From the NCBI GenBank assembly GCA_963796325.1, contig CAWCLF010000001.1, positions 404,928 through 468,927 of the forward strand: a stretch of DNA of 64,000 nt. The letters are read 5' to 3'. A program made the position numbers and the translations under genes. A model generated the notes under the pieces. The model made no database searches and had not been told where the DNA came from. It was given only the letters and a program-made list of their open reading frames with translations. This DNA comes from an uncultured Spirochaetota bacterium. GTDB taxonomy: Bacteria > Spirochaetota > Brevinematia > Brevinematales > JAOACQ01. Positions 40,702 through 55,174 of the stretch are shown piece after piece; position 1 is the first letter of the stretch, and each line of letters opens with the position of its first letter.

Positions 40702-41006
40702 CACCTGCCGATACCGGAGATTAAACGCCGGTTCGAGTAGCGGTGCGAGGCAAACGGGATTCAAATCAAGTTTTTAATTCATATCAAAGAAATTCACAAC
40801 TATTGACAAATAATTATTAATTAACGATAATAAATGAAAGATGAAGAGTTTTAATAACTAAAAGGGTAATATATGCCATATATTATTGAGAGAATTAATA
40901 GCTTTAAAGAATTATTAAAGTCAGTAACAGTTCACCTATACAAATTGTTCGCCGCAGAATTGTATATGGAGATCCATTTGTTTTTGAACAAAATTTAGAT
41001 TTATAT

Positions 41007-41462
41007 ATGTCATTGAAAGAGGATATTTCTGACGAATTTAATGTAAATCCTCACAATGTAATAATGGTCGGTTCAGCTAAACTTGGTTTTAGCATTTCTC
41101 CTCAAAAACTATGGCAACATTTTAATGAAAATTCAGATATTGATATAGTAATTATTTCAGAAGATTTATTTAAATCATTCTGGAAAACATTATTTTTATT
41201 TAATAATAATATATCTAGATCAGAAGATGATGATAAACAATTTAATTCTTTTAAAGATTATTTTTTTAAAGGCTGGATCAGACCTGATAAATTTAATTTT
41301 AACTTCAATGGAAAGCAAAAATGGTTTGAATATTTCCAAAAGATGGCTATTAAGTATAAACTTGAAAGGAAGTTAAGAGTAGCTTTATATATTAATTTTG
41401 AATTCTTTGAGAAGTATCATATCAATAATATTGAAAACTTAAAAACGGGAGTTTCATTATGA
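41007..41462 (+). CDS. minimal Pol-beta-superfamily nucleotidyltransferase (MNT-like); true start probably upstream
   Basis: VIMVGSAKLGFSISP…ENSDIDIVIIS gives the G-S … D-x-D NTase signature. No SD precedes the ATG at 41007. The frame is open back to 40908, and an SD-less 41-codon ORF (40873-40998) overlaps in another frame. Confidence 0.6.
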   Translation: MSLKEDISDEFNVNPHNVIMVGSAKLGFSISPQKLWQHFNENSDIDIVIISEDLFKSFWKTLFLFNNNISRSEDDDKQFNSFKDYFFKGWIRPDKFNFNFNGKQKWFEYFQKMAIKYKLERKLRVALYINFEFFEKYHINNIENLKTGVSL

Positions 41463-42472
41463 GTCAAACATTAGGAATAGCTACGAATAAAAAAATAATT
41501 GAAATATTTGATGACTATAGGAGTAAAAAACTTGTTTTAAAACCAAGATTTCAAAGAAATCTTGTGTGGAATAGTACCCATAAAGAAGCATTTATTGAGA
41601 CTATATTAAAAAATCTTCCTTTCCCTGAAGTATATTTTGCAGATGGTCCAATTGATCTTGAGAGCCAAACATCAACGATAATTGTTGTTGATGGACAACA
41701 AAGATTGAATACAATCTTTGAATATATAAACAATTCTTCAGATTTAAAATTCTCAAAAATAATAAATTTTTCAAAATTATCAAAAGAGGAACAAACTTCA
41801 TTTTTTGACTATATCGTTGTAGTAAGGTCGCTTGGTCGCCTTTCCGAAGAAGCGATTATTGATATATTTAGACGGATTAATTCAGTACAATATGCTTTAA
41901 ATGCTATAGAGGTAAATAATGCTTTATATGAAGGAGCTTTTATTTCAACGGCAAAAGATATTGCATCAAGTGATTTATTTAAAGAAATGGAAATTCTTAG
42001 TGAAGAAGAAAACGCCAGAATGAAAGATGTTGAATATGTTTTACTAGTGATGGCAACGTTGGAAACAGGTCAATATTTTACTGAAACAAATGAATTAGAG
42101 AATTTAATTACTACCTATGATGATTATTATGATAACAGCGATAAAATTAAAAACTCTATTTTACATACTTGTGAAATTATTAACCGTTTAAATCTTGAAA
42201 CTGATTCTATGTGGTACAGAAAATCAGCGATGTTCTCATTAATATGTGAATTATCAAAAATATTTATCCAAAAAAAAGAGATAAAATTAGATCATATTAA
42301 ACTGGTTTTGAATGAGTTAGAAGAAACAATTATGAATAGTAAAAAGAAAGATCCCAACATTGATGAATATGCTAAGTTTTACAAATTTATGTTCCAGCAA
42401 ACAACAAGTAGAATCGGCCGTTATGCAAGAGGTAATGTAATTAATAATCATTTGTCTAAATATATAATTTGA
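41459..42472 (+). CDS. stand-alone DUF262 (ParB/Srx-like NTP-binding) domain protein
   Basis: FQRNLVWNSTHKEAFIETILKNLPFPEVYF and VVDGQQRLNTIFEYI are the DUF262 hallmarks. No DUF1524/His-Me motif in the C-terminal half. GGGAG RBS and ATGA overlap with the upstream gene. Confidence 0.75.
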   Translation: MSQTLGIATNKKIIEIFDDYRSKKLVLKPRFQRNLVWNSTHKEAFIETILKNLPFPEVYFADGPIDLESQTSTIIVVDGQQRLNTIFEYINNSSDLKFSKIINFSKLSKEEQTSFFDYIVVVRSLGRLSEEAIIDIFRRINSVQYALNAIEVNNALYEGAFISTAKDIASSDLFKEMEILSEEENARMKDVEYVLLVMATLETGQYFTETNELENLITTYDDYYDNSDKIKNSILHTCEIINRLNLETDSMWYRKSAMFSLICELSKIFIQKKEIKLDHIKLVLNELEETIMNSKKKDPNIDEYAKFYKFMFQQTTSRIGRYARGNVINNHLSKYII

Positions 42473-42593
42473 AATAAAAGTTAACAGTGATGATTTTCAC
42501 CTGACAATTAGATTTATTTGTGGAAAGATATCTAACTTACATAGAATTGCAGTTACTATAAGATATATTAAATACAAAAATCCAGGAGAATAT

Positions 42594-44399
42594 ATGCGAT
42601 TAAAAAAACTTTCAGTATTTGGTTATCGTTCCATTAAAAAAGAAGAGATTTTGCTATTGGATGGGAGGGTAACAATACTTATTGGTGCAAATGATCATGG
42701 TAAAAGCAATATATTGGATGCTATAAGGTGTCTTAATGATAATAATAAGATAGAAACAGAAGATAAAAATTGGGATTTATCTAAGGAAGAAAGTGTAAGA
42801 ATAGAATGGCATTTTTCCGCATCACAAGACATTTTAGCAAAACTCGATGAATTAACTATCAAAAGAAAAGAAATTGCTGATAAAACTGCTGAAAAAGAAC
42901 TTAATGAAAAAGGATCAGCACTTCTAGAAAATAACTTTCGACAGAATTTAGATAATGAAATAGTTTTTATTCGAGATGATCAAACAAACGAAGTTAAGGT
43001 CGATTCATTGCCAATTGAAGCTCCTAAAACAATAGAGAAAGATGTCTTGCAGTTAAGGCCAAGAATTGAATTATTTGAATCACCAAAATCAAATTTAACT
43101 GATCAGATCAATCTTGAGCAACTAAATTCTCCTGATTTTGAATTTATGCAAGGAATATTTAGGTTAGCCGGGTTGTGGGATTTCCGTAATGAAATATTCA
43201 CACAAAACGATAGAACTTCTAGATTATTATCAGAAGCATCAGAAACCTTAACTCAAATATTGAATGATAAATGGAAACAGGGTGGCGATTTAATATGGAA
43301 ATTCGAACATACAGGGATGAATGGTGATCAAATCGTTATTAAAATAAAAGACCCTGCTATTCAAAGCAGATATACAAGACCATCTCTTCGATCTTCCGGG
43401 TTTAGAACTTATTTTCTTCTTTCAATGCTAACATTTGCTCGAACACAAAATGATGCTAGTAACACTTATTTTTTTTTATTTGATGAACCCGGTATATACC
43501 TTCATCCTTTTGCGCAACTAGATCTTCAAAGAAGTTTTGAAAGCATTGCTGATAAAACTCAATTAGTTTATACGACTCACTCTCTTTTCTTAGTAAACAA
43601 AAACTATCCTGAGAGGAATCGTGTCATCAGTAAAACAAAAGAAGGCACGAAAATTGACCAAAAACCATTTTCAAAAAACTGGAAATCAGTTAGAGAATCT
43701 CTAGGAATTTTGTTAAGTAATAATTTTTTAATTGCAGAAAAAACCTTACTTGTAGAAGGACCATCAGATGTAATTTATATTATTGATGCCATCAAGAGAT
43801 TAAAAAATTTAGGGAGTCTTGATATAGATGTAAATGCTTTTAGTGTTGTTGATGCTGGCACGTTAAAAAATTATATTGCCATGGCAAAATTGATGCTTTC
43901 CGAGGGTAGAGGTGTAGTTGCACTTATTGATGGAGACAATGGTGGAAAAGCAATTGACAAGGAATTAAAAGAGATTTGTAAATTAGAATTATCCTCTAAA
44001 AAATTAACGATATTAGCATTACCTAATAATAAGTCATCTGAAGAAATTTTTTTAGATAAAGAATTAATCAAAAAAGCTATTGGTATTGTTTGTAAGAATC
44101 TTATTGATATTAATGTACGAAAATTAAAGGATGGACTTAAAATAGAAGATGCAATAAAAGGAGTAGAAATTGAAACTGATAGAACTTTTGGGAAAACAAT
44201 AGAACAAGTGACTTCTGGGTGGTTTGAGAAAGAAGAAAAAATATCGAAGTTATCAATTGCACTTGAATATGAAAATTTGAGACAAATAGATACAACTACA
44301 GTGCCTGATCTTGCACTGGCCGAACTTGAAAAAATAAAAAAGGCTCTTGAACTCCGAGGAGAAAAATCAGTAGAAACTGGTGTTTTTGAAGAGGTTTAA
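42594..44399 (+). CDS. OLD-family ATP-dependent nuclease (ABC-type ATPase + TOPRIM)
   Basis: N-terminus MRLKKLSVFGYRSIK, Walker A GANDHGKSN, Walker B FFLFDEPGIYLHP, TTHS, TOPRIM LLVEGPSDVIYI and ALIDGDNGG. AGGAG RBS. Confidence 0.85.
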   Translation: MRLKKLSVFGYRSIKKEEILLLDGRVTILIGANDHGKSNILDAIRCLNDNNKIETEDKNWDLSKEESVRIEWHFSASQDILAKLDELTIKRKEIADKTAEKELNEKGSALLENNFRQNLDNEIVFIRDDQTNEVKVDSLPIEAPKTIEKDVLQLRPRIELFESPKSNLTDQINLEQLNSPDFEFMQGIFRLAGLWDFRNEIFTQNDRTSRLLSEASETLTQILNDKWKQGGDLIWKFEHTGMNGDQIVIKIKDPAIQSRYTRPSLRSSGFRTYFLLSMLTFARTQNDASNTYFFLFDEPGIYLHPFAQLDLQRSFESIADKTQLVYTTHSLFLVNKNYPERNRVISKTKEGTKIDQKPFSKNWKSVRESLGILLSNNFLIAEKTLLVEGPSDVIYIIDAIKRLKNLGSLDIDVNAFSVVDAGTLKNYIAMAKLMLSEGRGVVALIDGDNGGKAIDKELKEICKLELSSKKLTILALPNNKSSEEIFLDKELIKKAIGIVCKNLIDINVRKLKDGLKIEDAIKGVEIETDRTFGKTIEQVTSGWFEKEEKISKLSIALEYENLRQIDTTTVPDLALAELEKIKKALELRGEKSVETGVFEEV

Positions 44400-44624: not shown

Positions 44625-45473
44625 ATGAAACAATTACATGAAAATCTCAAAAAGAACGCAAATGAAATAGTGGATATCGGAATAACAAACGACAGCTTAT
44701 CCGGGAGAGGCGGTTTAGCTTTCATACTCCGTTATCTAAAGAAAATCAATATAATACCCGGGATTTGCGAAGTATTTAAAGGTGTAAGAAAAAGCAGGAA
44801 AGGCAAGGATATCGGGAAAATCATAAGCCAATTGATGTTCTACTTTATGGACGGAAGCAAACAGACAATGACAAGATTCGACGAATTATCGGATAACGAA
44901 GGATACAGGAAGACAATCGAGACATCGAATAAGGATATGTGTTCCTCGCATACTATGAAAAGGTTTTTTAACATCGCAAGTAGTGCTATGTTTAAAAAGC
45001 TCCAGACTATTCTTTTACAACTTTTCATCTGGAGACTGAGAGTTGAAAAGCCAAAGATTGTGATCCTGGGAATAGACACCATGGTGCTTGATAATAATGA
45101 CGCGAAGAAAAGAGAAGGCGTGAGCCCGACCTATAAAAAGGTAAACGGTTATCACCCTTTGCATATTTACTGGAAAAACTATGTTGTAAACATGGCTTTT
45201 CATGAAGGCAGCGAAGCCCCAAATCATGATAACGACCTGTTCGATTCGATAGAGGCGACGGTAAAGATAATCAGGAAAAAATACAACCATAAAATCCAGA
45301 TTATTGTAGTATCCGATTGCGGATTTTCAGATCAGAAATATTTCAAGTTCATGGATTCCTTGAAAGTGTATTTCATCTGCGGAGCAAAAATACTCGATTC
45401 GATCAAGCTGAAATTGATGCTGACACTTCCGAGAGAATGGGATAAATTCGAATACAGGCTTGAAAGCTGTTAG
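44625..45473 (+). pseudogene. IS1380-family transposase, C-terminally truncated (282 aa)
   Basis: N-terminus …ITNDSLSGRGGLAFILRYLKKINI… and GIDTMVLDN…YKKVNGYHPLHIY resemble IS1380 transposases (compare the intact 439-aa copy at 51297-52616). The ORF ends where an unrelated repeat begins. Confidence 0.6.
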
Positions 45474-45497: not shown

Positions 45498-45772
45498 CAC
45501 CGATCTAACTTTCCGCTTTTGTCAAACCGAAACCCAATTTGTTAATGAGCTATGACATTTCGAAACCTCCCATTTTCAATCTATCTTTCATTCTAAAGGA
45601 ATCGCCTTTAAGGGAGAAATCATGCGCATGTGCAATCCGGCACCCGTAGTGACCCACCATCGGCAAAAATAATGACCCACCCATCGTCATTTTAAGTGTC
45701 CCACCCCCCGGCAATTTTAGTGACCCACCCTGATGTGGTAAAATAAAAGAAACCGCATTGGGAGGGTAATAA

Positions 45773-47323
45773 ATGCCGAGGATAAAATCCATGACGCAAT
45801 TAATCGAAATTCTAATTCGTTTAAAGAAAGGCGAATCTATTAGAAATATCTGTAAAGAGACCGGGAATCATCGTAAAGTTATTCGAAAAGTTAAAGAAAT
45901 AAGCGCCGAAAAGGGATGGCTCAAACCATCGGTGACGCTGCCATCAGAAAGCGAAATGGACAAAGCTTACAACGAACCGGGAAAGTCCGAATTAAAGCCT
46001 CATATTCTGGATAATCATCAAAGCGATCTAAAAAGGTACAGAGAAGAGGAAAAAAGCTTTGTGATTATTCATAAACTTGTAACAGAACATGAAGACTGCA
46101 AAGGTATTTCCGAGGCAACCGTCAGGCGGTACATTCACAGGAATTTTCCAAGAGAACCGGTTTCTGTAATGATCCGTCCGCATGAAGATGGAGTGATGGA
46201 AGTAGATTTCGGATACCTCGGACTTGTTTATGATCCCTTCCAATGCCGTAACAGGAAAGCCTGGGTATTTTCAGGCAGGCTTCGCAAATCCCGAAAGGCA
46301 TATCGTGAGACAGTATACGACCAGAAAAGCGGGACGTTTTTCAAGTGCCATATAAGGGCTTTTCATCATTTTGGAGGTGTTCCAAAGAAAATTGTCCCGG
46401 ATAACCTTAAATCCGCAGTTGTAAAAGCCGCATTTTATGATCCGATCATCAACAGATCGTATCAGGAACTGGCCAGGCACTATGATTTTCTCATCAGTCC
46501 CTGCCTTCCCGCAACACCACAGCACAAAGGGGGAGTGGAAAACGATATTAAATATATCATTAACAATTTCTGGCCGTATTTCGTTGAAAAACAGAAGCAG
46601 AAAGGCCGAACTATTCCTTTGTTAACCGATCTGGAAGAAGCCCTGAACAATTGGGACAAGGATACTGCGGATATCAGGATAATCAAAGGCGTCGGAATGT
46701 CGCCTTGTGAGTTGTTTATCGAAGAATCGAAGACCCTATCAAAGCTTCCTCTTGAAGATTGGGATATGACCGACTGGAAAGAATGCACTGTCCGGGCTGA
46801 ATGGATGGTTCAGTACGATTGCGCTTACTATAGCGTCCCTTACAGGTATATTGGTGAGAAAGTAATGGTGTGCGCCAATTCAAGCTCTGTGAAAGTGTTT
46901 TACGGGCACGATTTGATATCAAGCCATACAAGAGCGCAGAAAAAATGGGAATACAAACGAAACAAGCTGCATGCTCCGCCATACAAGGAGGAATACCTGT
47001 CCATGACAAAGGAGTCCCTCCTCGCCTGGGCCGGGAGCATCGGCAAATCGACGCTTGAAGTGGCGGAACTGATATTCTCACGAAAGAATATCGACGGATT
47101 ACGCCCTGTCAGGGGGCTTCTCTTTCTTTCTAATAAATATTCCAGGGAAAGGCTCGAAGCCGCCTGCAGGAGGGCCATATATTACGATACTCCGGTCTAT
47201 ATGAGCGTAAAAAGCATTCTTGAAAAGAAACTGGACAGGGAGCCCTGCAATACTGATGAAACAACCATGGTAAATCATCTCCCTTTCAAGTTTGCCAGGG
47301 ATGACAGCTACTTCAATTATTGA
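45773..47323 (+). CDS. istA: IS21-family transposase IstA
   Basis: 516 aa. N-terminal HTH, then a DDE integrase core (MEVDFGYL…, VPDNLKSAV, ARHYDF…PCLPATPQHKGGVE). Confidence 0.9.
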   Translation: MPRIKSMTQLIEILIRLKKGESIRNICKETGNHRKVIRKVKEISAEKGWLKPSVTLPSESEMDKAYNEPGKSELKPHILDNHQSDLKRYREEEKSFVIIHKLVTEHEDCKGISEATVRRYIHRNFPREPVSVMIRPHEDGVMEVDFGYLGLVYDPFQCRNRKAWVFSGRLRKSRKAYRETVYDQKSGTFFKCHIRAFHHFGGVPKKIVPDNLKSAVVKAAFYDPIINRSYQELARHYDFLISPCLPATPQHKGGVENDIKYIINNFWPYFVEKQKQKGRTIPLLTDLEEALNNWDKDTADIRIIKGVGMSPCELFIEESKTLSKLPLEDWDMTDWKECTVRAEWMVQYDCAYYSVPYRYIGEKVMVCANSSSVKVFYGHDLISSHTRAQKKWEYKRNKLHAPPYKEEYLSMTKESLLAWAGSIGKSTLEVAELIFSRKNIDGLRPVRGLLFLSNKYSRERLEAACRRAIYYDTPVYMSVKSILEKKLDREPCNTDETTMVNHLPFKFARDDSYFNY

Positions 47324-47333
47324 ATTGCAGTAA

Positions 47334-48113
47334 ATGGAGGAATATATTATGAATGATTTGGCACAGTTAAAGCCTCAGTTAAAGAGATTAAAGCTCTCAG
47401 GTATACTTGAAACCCTCGATTATCATGTCCAGAAGGCACTGAACGAGAAGATATCTTATACCGATTTTCTTCTCAATTTACTGCTTGAGGAACTGGAGCG
47501 CAGGGATCACAAGGTTCTGAGCATCCGTTTAAAAAGGAGCGGGCTCGATTATGGTTGCACCCTGGAAAACTTCGACTTCGGGTTTAATTCTCAGATAAGG
47601 GAACCTCTTATCAAAGAACTTGCGACCTGTAATTTTCTGAAAAAGCATGAAAACATCTTCTTTTTAGGCCCCTCAGGCGTAGGTAAAACATGCCTGGCCC
47701 AGGCAATCGGACATGAAGCCATTAGGAGAGGCTTTGAGGTCCTTTTTATTAACACACTTTTACTTCTCAGGTCTCTTAACTCAGCCAGGGGTGATGGAAG
47801 ATATCCATTGAGGCTGAAAAATTTATGCCGGATCGACCTTCTCATTCTTGATGATTTCGGGCTTCAGAGTTTAAATCAACAGCAACAGGAAGATCTCTAT
47901 GAGGTTATTTGCGGGAGATATTCAAAAACTTCAATGATTATCACAAGCAATCGTGATATCTCCGAATGGCCCGCTGTCTTTTCTAACCCATTAATGGGGA
48001 GCGCTGCCATAGACAGGCTCATTGATGGTGCAGTTAAGATCAGCATAGAAGATGGAAATAGTTATAGGTTGAATAATTTTATCAAGAAAAATGAGTTAAA
48101 ATCTTTGACCTGA
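47334..48113 (+). CDS. istB: IS21-family helper ATPase IstB
   Basis: 259 aa. Walker A GPSGVGKT, Walker B LLILDDFG, TSNRDISEW, typical of IstB/DnaC-like proteins. Confidence 0.9.
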   Translation: MEEYIMNDLAQLKPQLKRLKLSGILETLDYHVQKALNEKISYTDFLLNLLLEELERRDHKVLSIRLKRSGLDYGCTLENFDFGFNSQIREPLIKELATCNFLKKHENIFFLGPSGVGKTCLAQAIGHEAIRRGFEVLFINTLLLLRSLNSARGDGRYPLRLKNLCRIDLLILDDFGLQSLNQQQQEDLYEVICGRYSKTSMIITSNRDISEWPAVFSNPLMGSAAIDRLIDGAVKISIEDGNSYRLNNFIKKNELKSLT

Positions 48114-48394
48114 AAACCTGGAATTGGTATACTGAAGGTACACTGGGGGGTGGGTCACTAAAAATGCCGACCCTGGGTCACTAAACCTGCCGGACGGCAG
48201 CATGATGCAGTAAGCTTCCAGGGTAGCGGTAGCATTGGCATTGTCATTCATCATTTCTCCCCATTGTGAAAATGTTGTATTTGTTGTTATTACAAATGAA
48301 ACATTAATTTTCTTGAAACAATGACTACAATTTTTTTTGGACTTAACCGGACAACCATCTTAAAATATAAAAAAGATTATTTATCAGGTATTTC

Positions 48395-49501
48395 ATGCAT
48401 CAATTTATAGTCTCCGAAAACACTCTTCCTGTCCATCTTGAATATTCATTTGCCGGTGTTTCAATCGATAATGACTGTTATTTTGATAATATTTCCATTG
48501 ATGGTCATGAAGAAAGAGGATTTTCTTCACTTTATGCTGACATTTGCGGTGTTCATAAAGGAGATGAAATTCTTTTTTATATGAATAAACCCGATAATGA
48601 TTCAAAAAGAGAAGGCGGAAGATTCTTCGGTTTTTTTGAGTGTGTTTCCGATTTTCCATTTTATGAGCCTCAAGGAAATTATCTTAAAGATGATCTTGGT
48701 GTACCGCTTGTATTTCGTCATAAAATTATCCCAAAAAAAATCTATTCCATAGGACTAACTGAATGGCAAGCAATGGATGAAATGAGTGATTTCAAAACTG
48801 TATTAGATATTCCCTGGACTTTAATATATCGTAAGATATCCGGAAAGCGGGGATGTACACCAATACTTCCGCATGAAGAAATAATAATTAAAAAAATGCT
48901 TGATAGGATTAATGCCGGGCAACCTGTTTTTTCAAGTAAAATAGGTTATAATGATAAAGAAATAGGGCTTTATGGTAATGGCGCCTCAACCGCTTACTCG
49001 GGACGAACGGATATATTTAATAAAATTGATAATCGGCTTAAAGAATTAATGGAAATACGAGGCCGTAAATGGGAACTCCAGCTCCAGGCATATCTCATGC
49101 AGGAAATAAAAAGAAATAAATTATTAACCGAACTTTTATTTCCTAATGTTGAGATTTTTTGGATCGGCAATGAAATCTACGCCGGCGCCGGTATGCAAAG
49201 CATTGATCTGCTTGTTTATACAAAAAATGATTTCAATACATTCATCCATCTGATCGAATTGAAATCTGTTACTGCCGACCGGGAAGCTGCCGCACAGCTA
49301 AACCGATATATTATGTGGCTTATGTCTCATATACCTGACCTTAAAATTCACCAGATTGTTCCTACTCTAATCGCCCCGGATGCCTCCCCGGAATTTCACC
49401 AGGAATTAAAAATATATTTGAGAGGAAGGGGTATAAACCAATATCGCATAGTAAATATTGATAATAACTTAAATTTTGACCAGGCAGTATATAATGTTTG
49501 A
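48395..49501 (+). CDS. type II restriction endonuclease candidate (N-terminal beta-barrel-like module + NucS/RecB-like PD-(D/E)xK core)
   Basis: GMQSIDLLVYTKNDFNTFIHLIELKSVTADREAAAQLNRYIMW gives D…E-L-K plus a Q..RY motif, as in NucS/DUF91-type nucleases. The gene ends 11 nt before the MTase ATG. Confidence 0.6.
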   Translation: MHQFIVSENTLPVHLEYSFAGVSIDNDCYFDNISIDGHEERGFSSLYADICGVHKGDEILFYMNKPDNDSKREGGRFFGFFECVSDFPFYEPQGNYLKDDLGVPLVFRHKIIPKKIYSIGLTEWQAMDEMSDFKTVLDIPWTLIYRKISGKRGCTPILPHEEIIIKKMLDRINAGQPVFSSKIGYNDKEIGLYGNGASTAYSGRTDIFNKIDNRLKELMEIRGRKWELQLQAYLMQEIKRNKLLTELLFPNVEIFWIGNEIYAGAGMQSIDLLVYTKNDFNTFIHLIELKSVTADREAAAQLNRYIMWLMSHIPDLKIHQIVPTLIAPDASPEFHQELKIYLRGRGINQYRIVNIDNNLNFDQAVYNV

Positions 49502-49512
49502 CAGGAATTTTT

Positions 49513-50247
49513 ATGATTGAAACAAATAATATATATAATATTGGGGCTCTTGAATTATTAAAACAGATAGATGACAATTCTATCGATTTAATATTCACTG
49601 ATCCCCCCTATATTATTTCAAGAAATACAGGTTTTAAAGCCTGTGGCCCTAAAGGAGTAGAACGCTTTAGGATCAGTATGGACTTCGGCCATTGGGACAA
49701 TCTCTCCATGAAAGAACATACAAAATTAATGAAAGCAGCAATAAAAGAATATTACAGAGTATTAAAAAAAAGCGGAACTTGCATTATCTGGTACGATTTA
49801 TATAAAATTGGGGTTTTAAAAGACTGGATAGAAGCTGCTGGGTTCAAGCAGGTTCGATTTATCGAATGGATAAAGACAAATCCTGTACCGATAAATAGTA
49901 AAACCAATTACCTTACTAATAGCAGAGAAGTTGCTTTATCCGCTGTAAAAAATGGCAAACCTGTTTTCAATAGCGAATATGATAACGGTGTATATTCAGC
50001 TCCCATTCATCGTGATGGTGGGAAACGACTTCATCCAACTCAAAAACCTCTTGGAATCAGTAAGGATTTAATAAAAAAACATTCCAAAGAGGGTGATATT
50101 GTTTTGGATACTTTTTTTGGAAGTGCGACAACATTTATCGCTGCCATCCAGACTGGACGAAACTATATAGGATGTGAAATAGATAAAAATTATTTTGAAA
50201 TTGGATCAAAACGAATAGAAAAAGAAAAAATTAAATTATATGCATAA
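49513..50247 (+). CDS. beta-class DNA methyltransferase (N6-adenine or N4-cytosine)
   Basis: Motif IV IDLIFTDPPYII precedes motif I VLDTFFGSATTFIAA, and HPTQKP is present. Start taken at the ATG 49513 after AGGA; the track start at 49498 is a TTG. Confidence 0.85.
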   Translation: MIETNNIYNIGALELLKQIDDNSIDLIFTDPPYIISRNTGFKACGPKGVERFRISMDFGHWDNLSMKEHTKLMKAAIKEYYRVLKKSGTCIIWYDLYKIGVLKDWIEAAGFKQVRFIEWIKTNPVPINSKTNYLTNSREVALSAVKNGKPVFNSEYDNGVYSAPIHRDGGKRLHPTQKPLGISKDLIKKHSKEGDIVLDTFFGSATTFIAAIQTGRNYIGCEIDKNYFEIGSKRIEKEKIKLYA

Positions 50248-50500: not shown

Positions 50501-51081
50501 ATGGTCAAAATACAAAGGCGAAATAATATTATCATAAGGAATGAATTTATGGAGATTAAAACGGGTAACGATTTTATTCGAAACAGGAATATCAGGACCA
50601 TGGCGCTGTTGGGAATAGCTGCATCGGTTATATTTCTATTATATTCAATTGAGACGCTTATACAAACGATGATATTAGGGACACCTCCTGACAGTATCGC
50701 CGATGTATTTGAATTATTGAATAAAAATCATTTCCTGGGGCTGATCAGGCTGGATATCCTTACGGTTATAGTCATGCCGGTATATTTCATTGTGTTTTAT
50801 TCGATATCCCGGATTTTAAAAATAGAATATGAAAATGACGACATAAATAATCTCATCATAATATTTCTGATTATCGGTTTCACCTTATTTCTTTCAACAT
50901 CAAATATTTTTCAAATGATGGAATTAAGCCATAGATATAATAATGAGCAAAATGAAATCATAAAGAATAATTTAGTGGTCATAGGAGAATCGTTAAGGGT
51001 ATCGGATATGTGGCATAGCACAGGAACGGTATTAAGCGGAATAATAATTCAAATATGCGCGATATTATATTCAATATTAAT
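50501..51081 (+). pseudogene. multi-TM membrane protein (DUF4386-like?), 5' portion, interrupted by IS1380
   Basis: Hydrophobic helices. The track ORF continues to 51163 only by reading into the IS terminal repeat. Confidence 0.6.
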
Positions 51082-52709
51082 CCTGAATCCGTTAAGTTAT
51101 CGACAAACAACCTTCTCTTGTTCTTTCCGCTTCAATTTTTGGCCAGTTCCTGCTGTATTATAACCAATAGTTGTGAATCATAACAAATTTTCGAAAATTA
51201 AATCTCCCAATAATCCTAAAAGTACATCTTTTAAAAATTTTAGGCGCAAACCCACTCTTTTCTTAAAACGCTAAAAACGGATCCTTTAACTCTTTTTTAA
51301 ACAGTTAGCGTCCCGTATAACTTACGAAATAGAGGCAGACACGGATTATTCCTATATATCTTCAGAGCAAACTTTCTTGCATGGCAGACCAATTTTGCAG
51401 CCATATACATTATATCCTGTATGACGGTTTTGAGCCTTATCCTTTCTTTAGCTTTACTTCCAGGAATACCTTTATACCTTAGCGCATTTTGCCCGACCCA
51501 CCTCAAAAGATTATAGGTAAAACATCCCAGTGACAATACCAAAGAATTTGTTTTAAATTTTCCGCTGGGAAATCTCTCCAATCCAATATCTGACTTAATT
51601 TCCGAATGGAACTGTTCGCTTGTGCCGTGTTCCTCATACAAGCTGATAATTGTATCGGCATCATCCGATAATGATGTCCAGTAAGCTTTTACTTCAATGT
51701 CGGCTAATAGATTTGGATTGCCTTGCTTATCTATCGTCCTTTCAATAACCTCATAAACCAGTTTTATTTCTTCTTTCAGCCCAACGTCCGCTCTTAACTT
51801 ATCCCGATATACCGTTTTCCCTTCCCGTGGATTTTCAACTGACGCTGTTTCCGATTTTTCTATTCTTTCCAGATAATCAAGCGGGCTCTCTCTTCTTAAA
51901 TTTCTTTTGATTATGAAATCAACTTTTTCATCTTCCGCACAGATTTTTATCGTATCATTGCTGTCATTCCCGCTGTCTACTCTCACAAGTATTTTACGTT
52001 CAAATATTTTCGCATTTTGTATTGCCTTGCGGATAAATTCTCCTTTATCACATTGGGAGTGACTTTTACCTTCACGCAGCTCAACGCCAACAATCCATCC
52101 TTCTGCTTTCCCAAAATACGCAAATATTGGTGCATAGCCGTAATACCCTGCGTAAGTCCTTGAGACTCCTTCCTTTTTTGTCTGTTCATTATTGAATGGT
52201 GATACATCTATATCCAGAGGAACTAAATCCCTGATTGTCGGAGTTAAGCGGCCTTTCATCCTTTTTACCAGCCTTATGCTTTCATCGCTTATTTTATCGG
52301 GCCAGCTTTCAGGGGCCATATCCATTCGCTGTCTCAAATTTTCCTCCGATGGCACGGTCGGTATATCCATCATCGCTTTGAAAAATCTATCATTTCGATA
52401 TTGCTCTATTTTTGCGAATTCTGTTTTGCCCATAGCAAGCAGACTTGTATAGCTCTTTACGATATCTATATCTTTAATCTGCGGCCTTTTTCCCGAACTT
52501 TCCAATCTTTTATCAAGATTTGATTTGCGTATTAAAGAACCTATCAGTGTCAGTCCGCTTTCAGCCGCAATTAGCTCGTCTGTTTCCTCCAGGTCAAAAC
52601 GGATAATTGTTTTCATTCCTTCACCCTCTGGGTGAACCTTATTAGGTCCATAACCCTATATATTGTAAAGGGTTAATCTATATTTTTCTAATTAGTTAAC
52701 GGATTCAGG
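51082..52709 (-). mobile_element. IS1380-family insertion sequence (1628 bp), intact
   Basis: A 14-bp perfect terminal IR cctgaatccgttaa (51082-51095; inverted at 52696-52709). 5-bp direct repeat TTAAT at 51077-51081 and 52710-52714. Confidence 0.85.
51297..52616 (-). CDS. IS1380-family DDE transposase
   Basis: 439 aa. N-terminus …DELIAAESGLTLIGSLI… and YAGYYGYAPIFAY…, the length and a single ORF filling the element all fit the IS1380 family. Confidence 0.75.
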   Translation of the reverse strand: MKTIIRFDLEETDELIAAESGLTLIGSLIRKSNLDKRLESSGKRPQIKDIDIVKSYTSLLAMGKTEFAKIEQYRNDRFFKAMMDIPTVPSEENLRQRMDMAPESWPDKISDESIRLVKRMKGRLTPTIRDLVPLDIDVSPFNNEQTKKEGVSRTYAGYYGYAPIFAYFGKAEGWIVGVELREGKSHSQCDKGEFIRKAIQNAKIFERKILVRVDSGNDSNDTIKICAEDEKVDFIIKRNLRRESPLDYLERIEKSETASVENPREGKTVYRDKLRADVGLKEEIKLVYEVIERTIDKQGNPNLLADIEVKAYWTSLSDDADTIISLYEEHGTSEQFHSEIKSDIGLERFPSGKFKTNSLVLSLGCFTYNLLRWVGQNALRYKGIPGSKAKERIRLKTVIQDIMYMAAKLVCHARKFALKIYRNNPCLPLFRKLYGTLTV

Positions 52710-52919
52710 TTAATGATTAAAGGCAAACTGTTTAAAAAAATCACGGGGATCGTCGGTATTGTCGCATTTTCCCTGGACTTAATTCATATTTTCGCCAGTT
52801 TTTCTTCCGTAAAAATTGCCTCCTATATAATGGTAATTGCCGGTACGTTATATTTAGCATGGTTTCCCTTACTGATAATTGATTTCAGCAGAATAAGAAA
52901 ACCTTTAACGGAAAAGTAA
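52710..52919 (+). pseudogene. membrane protein, 3' portion (continuation of 50501..51081)
   Basis: In frame with the 5' part after removing the IS and one TTAAT copy (…YSIL|MIKGKLFKKITGIVGIVAF…). Two further TM helices. Confidence 0.6.
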
Positions 52920-54663: not shown

Positions 54664-54909
54664 ATGCCTAAAACAATTACATTAAGAATTGATGAACCCT
54701 TACTGGAACGATTCAAAAAACATGCAGAAATTGAAAATCGTTCCTTATCTAATTTCATAGAAACTGCAACATTGAAATACTTAGAGGAAATCGAATCGGC
54801 TGATGATTTTGAAATGGAGGACATGACAAATAATAATAATCTTATGTCTCGATTAAAAAAAGGAAGCGATGATGCCGCAAAAAAAAGAGGAAGATTCGTT
54901 GCGGTTTAA
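54664..54909 (+). CDS. ribbon-helix-helix (CopG/RelB-type) antitoxin
   Basis: ITLRIDEPLLERFKKHAEIENRSLSNFIETA is the RHH pattern. ATG follows GAGGTG. Overlaps the toxin gene. Confidence 0.75.
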   Translation: MPKTITLRIDEPLLERFKKHAEIENRSLSNFIETATLKYLEEIESADDFEMEDMTNNNNLMSRLKKGSDDAAKKRGRFVAV

Positions 54910-55174
54910 AATATTTGAGACTGATCAATTCAATGAGGATATTAATCAAATAAAAGGGAAGAAGCAGGAAAAGTTTTATTTAAAGGTTAAAAATTATGTA
55001 TATCCGCAAATCATGGAAAATCCATACTATGGCCTGAACATCAAAAAATTAAAGAATTACAAACCTGAAACCTGGAGATATAGAATTGGTGATTATAGAT
55101 TATTTTATGAAATCAATGATGATGAAAAAATAATATCAATGATAGCTTTTGATATAAGACAGGATGCATATTAA
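54869..55174 (+). CDS. RelE/ParE-family type II toxin
   Basis: C-terminus WRYRIGDYRLFYEINDDEKIISMIAFDIRQDAY is the classical RelE/ParE signature. The real start may be the TTG at 54899 (LRFKIFETDQF). Confidence 0.8.
   Translation: MMPQKKEEDSLRFKIFETDQFNEDINQIKGKKQEKFYLKVKNYVYPQIMENPYYGLNIKKLKNYKPETWRYRIGDYRLFYEINDDEKIISMIAFDIRQDAY

Follow-up and report, generated by a model that had tools for sequence, protein, structure and literature searches.

Positions 42594 to 44399 of the window, by which we mean the whole 64,000-nucleotide stretch of DNA analysed here (from an uncultured Spirochaetota bacterium, contig CAWCLF010000001.1), hold an intact open reading frame (ORF) of 601 amino acids that starts with ATG and encodes an OLD-family protein, an ATPase fused to a Toprim nuclease. 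It lies on the forward strand between an upstream pair of genes, nucleotidyltransferase (NTase)-like and DUF262, and downstream insertion sequence (IS) elements. The protein has the domain architecture and the conserved catalytic residues of the OLD family, and its homologues are accompanied by no conserved partner gene. An earlier note on this DNA had reported the intact ORF, five motifs (GANDHGKSN, FDEPGIYLHP, TTHS, VEGPSD and IDGDNGG), an AGGAG ribosome binding site, a spacer of 121 nt between the stop of the DUF262 gene (42472) and the OLD start, and one of 225 nt between the OLD stop and the next ORF (44625); each of these is present in the sequence where the note had placed it. The C-terminus is conserved to its last residues (...RGEKS..GVFEEV) in the family alignment, and the gene has therefore not been truncated by the IS elements that follow it. 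What kind of OLD gene is this? The earlier note had wavered between a stand-alone class 1 enzyme, a Gabija system that had lost its helicase, and the third gene of a larger system formed with the upstream pair. The gene and the features of its product are as follows.

42584..42588, forward strand: Shine-Dalgarno-like AGGAG, 5 nt before the OLD ATG, read from the sequence.
42594..44399, forward strand: OLD-family ATPase-Toprim nuclease gene, 601 amino acids, the sole gene of the unit (ORF, Pfam, PADLOC, homologues and model).
42594..43595, forward strand: ABC-type (AAA_15/OLD-ABC) ATPase region, residues 1-334 (Pfam and model).
42684..42710, forward strand: Walker A motif or P-loop GANDHGKSN, residues 31-39, with the catalytic K37; G31 to K37 nearly invariant, at least 90% conserved.
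43392..43403, forward strand: ABC-signature-like SSGF, residues 267-270; S267, G269 and F270 invariant.
43479..43508, forward strand: Walker B and D-loop region FDEPGIYLHP, residues 296-305; F296, D297, E298, P299, G300, L303, H304 and P305 invariant.
43572..43583, forward strand: H-loop TTHS, residues 327-330; T328 and H329 invariant.
43734..44033, forward strand: Toprim nuclease core, residues about 381-480 (Pfam PF20469 and PF01751, models).
43752..43769, forward strand: VEGPSD, residues 387-392, with the predicted ligands E388 (metal A) and D392 (metal B), family-invariant.
43926..43946, forward strand: IDGDNGG, residues 445-451, the Toprim DxD after strand b3, with the metal-A ligands D446 and D448.
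44028..44045, forward strand: NKSSEE, with S481 and E483 as predicted metal-B ligands after strand b4, both invariant.
44037..44348, forward strand: C-terminal helical domain, residues 482-585, six helices (models, pLDDT about 90).

Pfam recognises AAA_15 over residues 1-334 (E = 1.4e-24), OLD-like_TOPRIM (PF20469) over residues 381-448 (E = 2.9e-5, exceeding the gathering score) and PF01751 over residues 385-467. Among the PADLOC models, Old gives the protein 98.7 bits, the best GajA model 61.9 bits and the fused AriAB model 48.8 bits, and the AriA and PtuA models produce generic matches on residues 1-334 and the Walker A motif. That motif aligns with the Walker A of TsOLD (the Thermus scotoductus OLD), PtuA, GajA and P2 Old; FDEPGIYLHP aligns with EEPEMYLHP of TsOLD and DEPELYLHP of P2 Old, and TTHS with the STHS of the same two proteins. 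With P2 Old there is a colinear alignment that runs from Walker B through Toprim, at 25% identity over 304 amino acids (E = 7e-8). SSGF, judging from its position ahead of Walker B, is probably the ABC signature motif. The 26 family members all have D297/E298 and H329, and at least 90% of them have K37. The Toprim core, modelled as a four-stranded sheet (b1 383-387, b2 416-420, b3 440-445 and b4 471-475), matches DnaG-type Toprim domains in BFVD, and all six ligand positions of a two-metal Toprim site are conserved (E388, D392, D446, D448, S481 and E483). E388 and D392 correspond to E377 and D381 of TsOLD, through the aligned LLVEG motif and the metal-ligand residues listed for TsOLD and BpOLD in PMC7049728, and the invariant D446 and nearly invariant D448 are the motif-position counterparts of TsOLD D431 and D433. 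S481 and E483, matched by position and not by superposition, would be equivalent to S478/E480 of TsOLD and T506/E508 of BpOLD.

An AlphaFold2 model of the protein that was built on 26 members of the family reaches a mean pLDDT of 81 and shows a variable helical segment inserted in the ATPase at about residues 78-110. When the full-length model was compared with the PDB by Foldseek, the best matches were GajA (8SM3, E = 2.3e-15), TsOLD (6P74, 7.4e-15) and the retron Eco8 OLD (4e-13), and after the OLD-family proteins came PtuA, RecN and the heads of Rad50 and SMC. Global TM-scores for GajA, TsOLD and Eco8 OLD are poor, owing to differing domain orientations. The C-terminal helical domain has its own set of invariant residues, R509, G533, S551, K552, L553, Y559 and E560, with K552 at the start of the fifth helix. 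Modelled alone (pLDDT 87.6), the C-terminal region (CTR) found no significant Foldseek match in the PDB or BFVD, only the Toprim core being aligned, and the class 2 CTR and GajA structures were absent from its 50 best matches.

The protein has 732 homologues at E <= 1e-5; of the 120 best, the majority span the full length and share 50-68% identity with it. Their hosts are mostly uncultured and include Woesebacteria, Amesbacteria, Levyibacteriota, Elusimicrobia, Acidobacteriota, Phycisphaerae, Alpha- and Gammaproteobacteria, and Saccharibacteria. In phage and plasmid collections there was no close homologue, the best match having 31% identity over 41% of the query. More than 100 residues are invariant in the family alignment, a degree of conservation that indicates purifying selection on a protein that would work alone. 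Single-gene OLDs of this kind form a large, uncharacterised clade with strong conservation, which is common in uncultured phyla (the candidate phyla radiation, Elusimicrobia and Acidobacteria), and the gene is a representative of it.

Within this family, members of 654-699 amino acids (P0010, P0011, P0025, P0036, P0070 and P0088; loci L044-L051) carry 40-90 extra residues after positions 91-100. The site of this insertion is the helical insert of the ATPase, a low-confidence loop of the model, which is hypervariable within a very conserved protein. Degraded homologues were also encountered: the gene at L013 is split in two ORFs, and L020 and L021 match only in separated pieces, with opposite-strand ORFs between the pieces in L021.

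Does any other gene accompany these homologues? The context survey drew on 21 genome and 66 metagenome loci with flanks, which gave 62 full-length copies at 47 non-redundant loci, 37 of them with at least 1.5 kb downstream and 36 with at least 1.5 kb upstream. No neighbour family occupies a fixed position across the 47 loci. Directly after the OLD gene there is no GajB/UvrD-like helicase in any of the 37 loci, and the sole helicase-domain protein seen is MzaC of the Mza system, two genes downstream at L024. The next gene is mostly convergent or very small; a same-strand ORF of at least 150 amino acids begins within 400 nt at four of the 37 loci, and these four ORFs are mutually unrelated (one is MzaB of the Mza system, two have no Pfam match and one was not scanned). 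Homologues of the NTase-like gene and the 337-amino acid DUF262 gene of the window were found by tblastn at none of the OLD loci, the lone weak match, with 24% identity at the N-terminus, being to a different, 677-amino acid DUF262 protein in a single Woesebacteria lineage. The only two recurrent neighbour families, variable in position and orientation, are large serine recombinases (seven loci) and N6/N4 DNA methylases (at least three scanned members of a six-locus cluster). The recombinases, which combine Resolvase, Recombinase and zinc ribbon domains, are often directly adjacent to the OLD gene on the opposite strand (L002, L011, L016, L026, L036, L038 and L056), and their adjacency suggests that integrative mobile elements carry the gene at their edge. 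Other immediate neighbours are parts of other defence systems, namely a Type IIG restriction-modification (R-M) enzyme with a DUF262 protein of HEC-05/PDC-M55C type, HmaC, MzaB/MzaC, a NERD protein and an MvaI/BcnI restriction enzyme. This varied context is the signature of a self-contained gene travelling on mobile islands. The earlier note had proposed to look at what flanks close homologues, and had held that scattered single genes without any link to NTase/DUF262 genes would speak for a plain class 1 OLD; the survey gives a clear answer of this kind, and by the note's own reasoning it disposes of the other two readings.

Published definitions of the OLD classes rely on genomic context: class 1 is a single gene, class 2 is followed by the UvrD-like GajB, class 3 belongs to a retron with a reverse transcriptase and a noncoding RNA, and class 4 is the split AriA/AriB pair of PARIS, in rare cases fused. 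By this definition the gene, like its clade, is a class 1 OLD, a single gene with no conserved adjacent partner at 47 non-redundant loci, and it has the attributes of the family as a whole, an ABC ATPase at the N-terminus and, at the C-terminus, a Toprim domain with its glutamate, DxD and metal-B ligands. Pfam scans of the island ORFs revealed neither the helicase of class 2, also lacking at the 37 loci, nor the reverse transcriptase of class 3, and Rfam found no RNA family in the window, where class 3 would have an msr/msd RNA. Unlike in class 4, a single chain contains both the ATPase and the Toprim, which is PF20469, with DUF4435 not among the matches. The class 1 OLDs already described (P2 Old, the Thermus scotoductus OLD in PDB 6P74 and Vc OLD of Vibrio cholerae) are likewise single genes without a conserved partner. 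They share with the present protein the ABC ATPase with a helical insert followed by Toprim, the Walker A and B motifs, the H-loop and the six metal ligands; the alignment with P2 Old and TsOLD is colinear, and Old is the best PADLOC defence model. They differ from it in being very distant in sequence (E = 7e-8 for P2 Old, while the family profile gives TsOLD 39 bits), and the present gene is found in a defence island and is chromosomal in uncultured environmental bacteria.

We read the gene, with a probability of roughly 0.8, as a self-sufficient single-gene OLD nuclease, horizontally acquired as cargo on a low-GC (guanine plus cytosine), IS-rich defence island. By analogy with its characterised relatives it is most likely an anti-phage enzyme; among class 1 OLDs, anti-phage activity has been demonstrated for only two, P2 Old and Vc OLD. 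Its adjacency to the NTase-like/DUF262 cassette and to an R-M pair is a matter of defence-gene clustering and not of operonic partnership, and neither a lost Gabija partner nor a new three-gene system need be invoked. If the enzyme works like P2 Old, TsOLD and Vc OLD, the N-terminal ABC ATPase would dimerise, or form a higher oligomer, via its inserted helical segment, and ATP bound or hydrolysed by K37, D297/E298 and H329 would license or position the Toprim domain. The latter would then nick or processively degrade DNA by a two-metal mechanism, with metal A held by E388, D446 and D448 and metal B by D392, S481 and E483, and the C-terminal helical domain with K552 would probably aid DNA binding or the transition state. 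Either phage DNA replication would be blocked, or the infection would be abortive and the infected cell killed. The gene adds to a known kind of defence gene from a widespread, uncharacterised clade, and a representative of this clade is a reasonable candidate for anti-phage testing.

Several points weigh against this reading. Class 1 OLDs have been described as shorter than those of class 2 and as lacking a C-terminal helical domain, as in TsOLD, the sole solved class 1 structure, and here there is such a domain of about 100 residues; length is not decisive, the class 1 archetype P2 Old having 586 amino acids. A 2023 review describes class 1 genes as typically lying away from other defence genes, whereas this gene and many of its homologues adjoin them. 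The family profile, run against the PDB with hmmsearch, gives 39.1 bits to TsOLD and 39.0 bits to GajA, and phmmer is likewise non-discriminating. It is the genomic context that places the gene in class 1, and sequence and fold do not separate classes 1 and 2; the structural traits of TsOLD and BpOLD that have been used to contrast the two do not track the context-based classes. ORFs at the loci were called by a simple longest-ORF heuristic, by which small partner genes could be missed. It is possible that the DUF262 and OLD genes are co-transcribed by read-through, there being no terminator-like site in the 121-nt gap; the promoter and terminator scan of 40.6-44.7 kb returned as many sites as shuffled sequence and is uninformative on operon structure, and the spacer has no significant fold (z = 0.48). 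The activity and defence role of the clade are those that we infer from its homologues.

On either side of the OLD gene the island carries the following neighbours, which lie outside the unit; for two of them the strand is not stated.

40873..41462, forward strand: NTase-like gene, frameshifted (tblastn with intact partners of 198-210 amino acids).
41459..42472, forward strand: ParB-DUF262 protein, 337 amino acids, NsnA-like (Pfam and PADLOC).
44625..45473, forward strand: 5' fragment of an IS1380-type transposase gene, 282 amino acids (Pfam DDE_Tnp_1_4, profile positions 8-248 of 435).
45637..48193, forward strand: IS21-family element with multiple terminal repeats, istA at 45773-47323 and istB at 47334-48113.
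48395-50247, strand not stated: probable Type II R-M pair of overlapping genes (weak NucS/PD-(D/E)xK-like protein and methylase).
51070-52721, reverse strand: complete IS1380-family element, with a transposase of 439 amino acids at 51297-52616 and 31-nt imperfect terminal inverted repeats.
54869-55174, strand not stated: ParE-family toxin gene, 101 amino acids, within the island.

The DUF262 protein matches Pfam GmrSD_N (8.4e-22), and its best PADLOC match is NsnA of the Menshen system (4.8e-36), followed by PD-T4-2_A. It has a large family of its own, at 50-56% identity. We looked at eight of its contexts (Flagellimonas, Bacillus cereus, Anabaena, a metagenome contig, Anoxybacillus, Gloeothece, an Ignavibacteria metagenome-assembled genome and a 6.2-kb Cronobacter plasmid; L089-L092 and L094-L097), and in all eight an NTase-like homologue of about 200 amino acids, 29-55% identical to that of the window by tblastn, directly precedes the DUF262 gene. 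The DUF262 proteins of these cassettes have 335-345 amino acids, and the two genes abut or overlap. An OLD homologue is present in none of the eight contexts, and in none of them does an ATPase, NsnB or NsnC gene follow the DUF262 gene. The NTase-like and ParB-DUF262 genes form an independent, tightly conserved two-gene module, spread over Bacteroidota, Bacillota, Cyanobacteria, Ignavibacteria and a small Cronobacter plasmid, that may be an undescribed DUF262-based defence system and is a more interesting by-product of this work than the OLD gene itself. Two corrections to the earlier note concern the first member of this pair. The Pfam NTase assignment is borderline (19.9 bits against a cut-off of 21, with the GS...DxD signature present), and the intact partner proteins of other genomes give only borderline NTP_transf_2 matches and match no PADLOC model. 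In the window this gene is frameshifted near 40915-40925: its first 17 or so residues (MPYIIERINSFKELLKS, from the ATG at 40873) lie in a different frame, the longest in-frame ORF is 41007-41462, and by tblastn the homology to the partner proteins extends beyond the ATG at 41007, upstream in that frame, as far as a stop. A Logan contig that was assembled separately (L001) has the identical frameshifted sequence, and the cassette may be decaying in this genome.

Could the OLD gene nevertheless be the effector of its upstream neighbour? Menshen consists of NsnA, the ATPase NsnB with a DUF3696 tail, and NsnC, an inPIN effector, some NsnC effectors being Toprim nucleases. A compact system of this type can be imagined here, in which the NsnA-like DUF262 protein, alone or together with the NTase-like one, would sense phage DNA and signal to the adjacent OLD protein, and the latter would merge in one chain the roles of NsnB, as an OLD-type ABC ATPase transducer, and of a Toprim-type NsnC. 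The best PADLOC match of the DUF262 protein fits this idea, as does the composition of Menshen, which joins DUF262 to an ATPase that is AAA_15/OLD-ABC, like that of the OLD protein, and to nucleases, Toprim folds among them; the two genes share a strand and are separated by 121 nt in which no terminator is predicted, and in Woesebacteria (L009) a different DUF262 protein, in a second independent case, lies 28 nt upstream of an OLD homologue. However, this DUF262 gene and the NTase-like gene are absent from all of the OLD loci, 36 of which have at least 1.5 kb upstream, and their co-occurrence with the OLD gene was seen in no other genome examined; conversely, an OLD or other ATPase gene lies downstream at none of the eight cassette loci. 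The earlier note's suggestion of a third gene in a larger system finds no support in either direction. Moreover, the OLD protein has no match to the DUF3696 tail and there is no inPIN-type NsnC, although by a published rule a third gene almost always accompanies an NsnA-like gene that is followed by an NsnB-like one. The DUF262 protein of L009 belongs to the HEC-05/PDC-M55C type, which is a candidate system in its own right, and stands beside a Type IIG R-M enzyme. In the window the DUF262 protein has its own NTase-like partner, the first gene of the cassette is frameshifted, and the GC content is 25-27% in the cassette against 31% in the OLD gene. We consider the compact Menshen-like system unlikely. 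About as unlikely is the variant in which a DUF262/ParB sensor has been newly placed upstream of a normally autonomous OLD, here and in Woesebacteria, and the two work as a Menshen-like pair; if that were true, defence systems would be assembled by modular juxtaposition within islands.

The same gene could be viewed as a GajA, that is a class 2 OLD, whose GajB was deleted by the downstream IS1380/IS21 insertion or by rearrangement, the decapitated Gabija of the earlier note. B. cereus GajA (PDB 8SM3) and the class 2 OLD of B. pseudomallei (BpOLD; CTR in PDB 6NK8) have the same two-domain fold and a similar length. Class 2 OLDs are characterised by a helix, insert-3, that lies between alpha3 and beta4, and by a five-helix bundle at the C-terminus with a catalytic lysine. 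The present protein has a helical domain after Toprim, in which K552 on the fifth helix is reminiscent of BpOLD K562 on alpha5H. In its length of 601 amino acids and in this domain it resembles class 2 more than TsOLD; GajA structures top the Foldseek list by a narrow margin, and IS elements begin 225 nt past the OLD stop, in a rearranged region with a truncated IS1380-type copy. Yet the absence of a UvrD/GajB-like helicase after the gene, already remarked on in the earlier note, is repeated in the island ORFs scanned and directly after the gene at all 37 loci, since MzaC of L024 belongs to the Mza system. The PADLOC Old model scores above every GajA model, the family profile scores TsOLD and GajA equally, and the helical domain brings up no class 2 CTR or GajA among its 50 best Foldseek matches. 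The context survey in practice refutes a degraded Gabija, which we regard as very improbable, and the loss of a partner through IS activity is an unnecessary assumption because the C-terminus is conserved and the family has no partner anywhere else. Just as improbable is that the gene belongs to class 3 (retron), to a fused PARIS-type class 4 or to the non-defence, housekeeping OLDs, of which the archaeal Cran1 cell-cycle ATPase is an example. The significant fold matches include the retron Eco8 OLD, PARIS and the Septu protein PtuA have the AAA_15-type ABC ATPase in common with the present protein, the fused AriAB model matches weakly at 48.8 bits, and non-defence OLD ATPases are described in PMC12796447. 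Set against these likenesses are the lack of any reverse transcriptase ORF on the island and of any Rfam RNA family in the window, the fusion of the ATPase to a Toprim of the OLD-like PF20469 type in place of DUF4435, the homologues that adjoin recombinases and R-M genes, and the position on a low-GC, IS-rich variable island at whose right border the synteny with a sister genome ends, which misfits a core gene.

The self-sufficient OLD nuclease that we favour would have travelled with this island, a low-GC variable region of about 17.8 kb (about 40.77-58.59 kb) between rluD and a sugar ABC transporter operon. GC content rises from the values given above for the cassette and the OLD gene to 38-44% in the IS elements and 47-49% in the host flanks. 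No helicase or reverse transcriptase was found among the island ORFs scanned with Pfam (nearly all those of at least 90 amino acids in 40.7-58.6 kb), and the window has no tRNA or tmRNA integration site. The sister genome L098, at 86% nucleotide identity, is syntenic only rightwards of 58594 and has a different left context, and an island-free empty site was not obtained from this sole relative found.

Pfam bears out the earlier description of a truncated IS1380 transposase followed by IS21 downstream of the OLD gene, the latter through matches to rve/Mu-transpos_C_2 and IstB_IS21. The remainder of the truncated transposase is not in the window, and a deletion or rearrangement has therefore occurred at its junction with IS21. 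Because this transposase is only 22% identical to that of the complete copy at 51297-52616, the island holds two different IS1380-type elements. The repeats at 45637-45729, which the earlier note had taken to be unrelated to IS21, were rejected as an independent feature; they are the left terminal array of the IS21 element and recur inverted at 48148-48193. Of the repeats of the GTGACCCACC type, the left end has three copies and the right end two; the repeats seen in the element are the direct families D1 and D4 and the inverted families I4, I6 and I7. In the R-M pair, the first gene encodes a putative restriction enzyme of 368 amino acids with weak NucS/PD-(D/E)xK-like similarity and no Pfam family, and the second an N6/N4 DNA methylase (PADLOC MTase_II, E = 2.4e-54). 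The island also carries a glyoxalase, a GGDEF regulator and a hydrolase.

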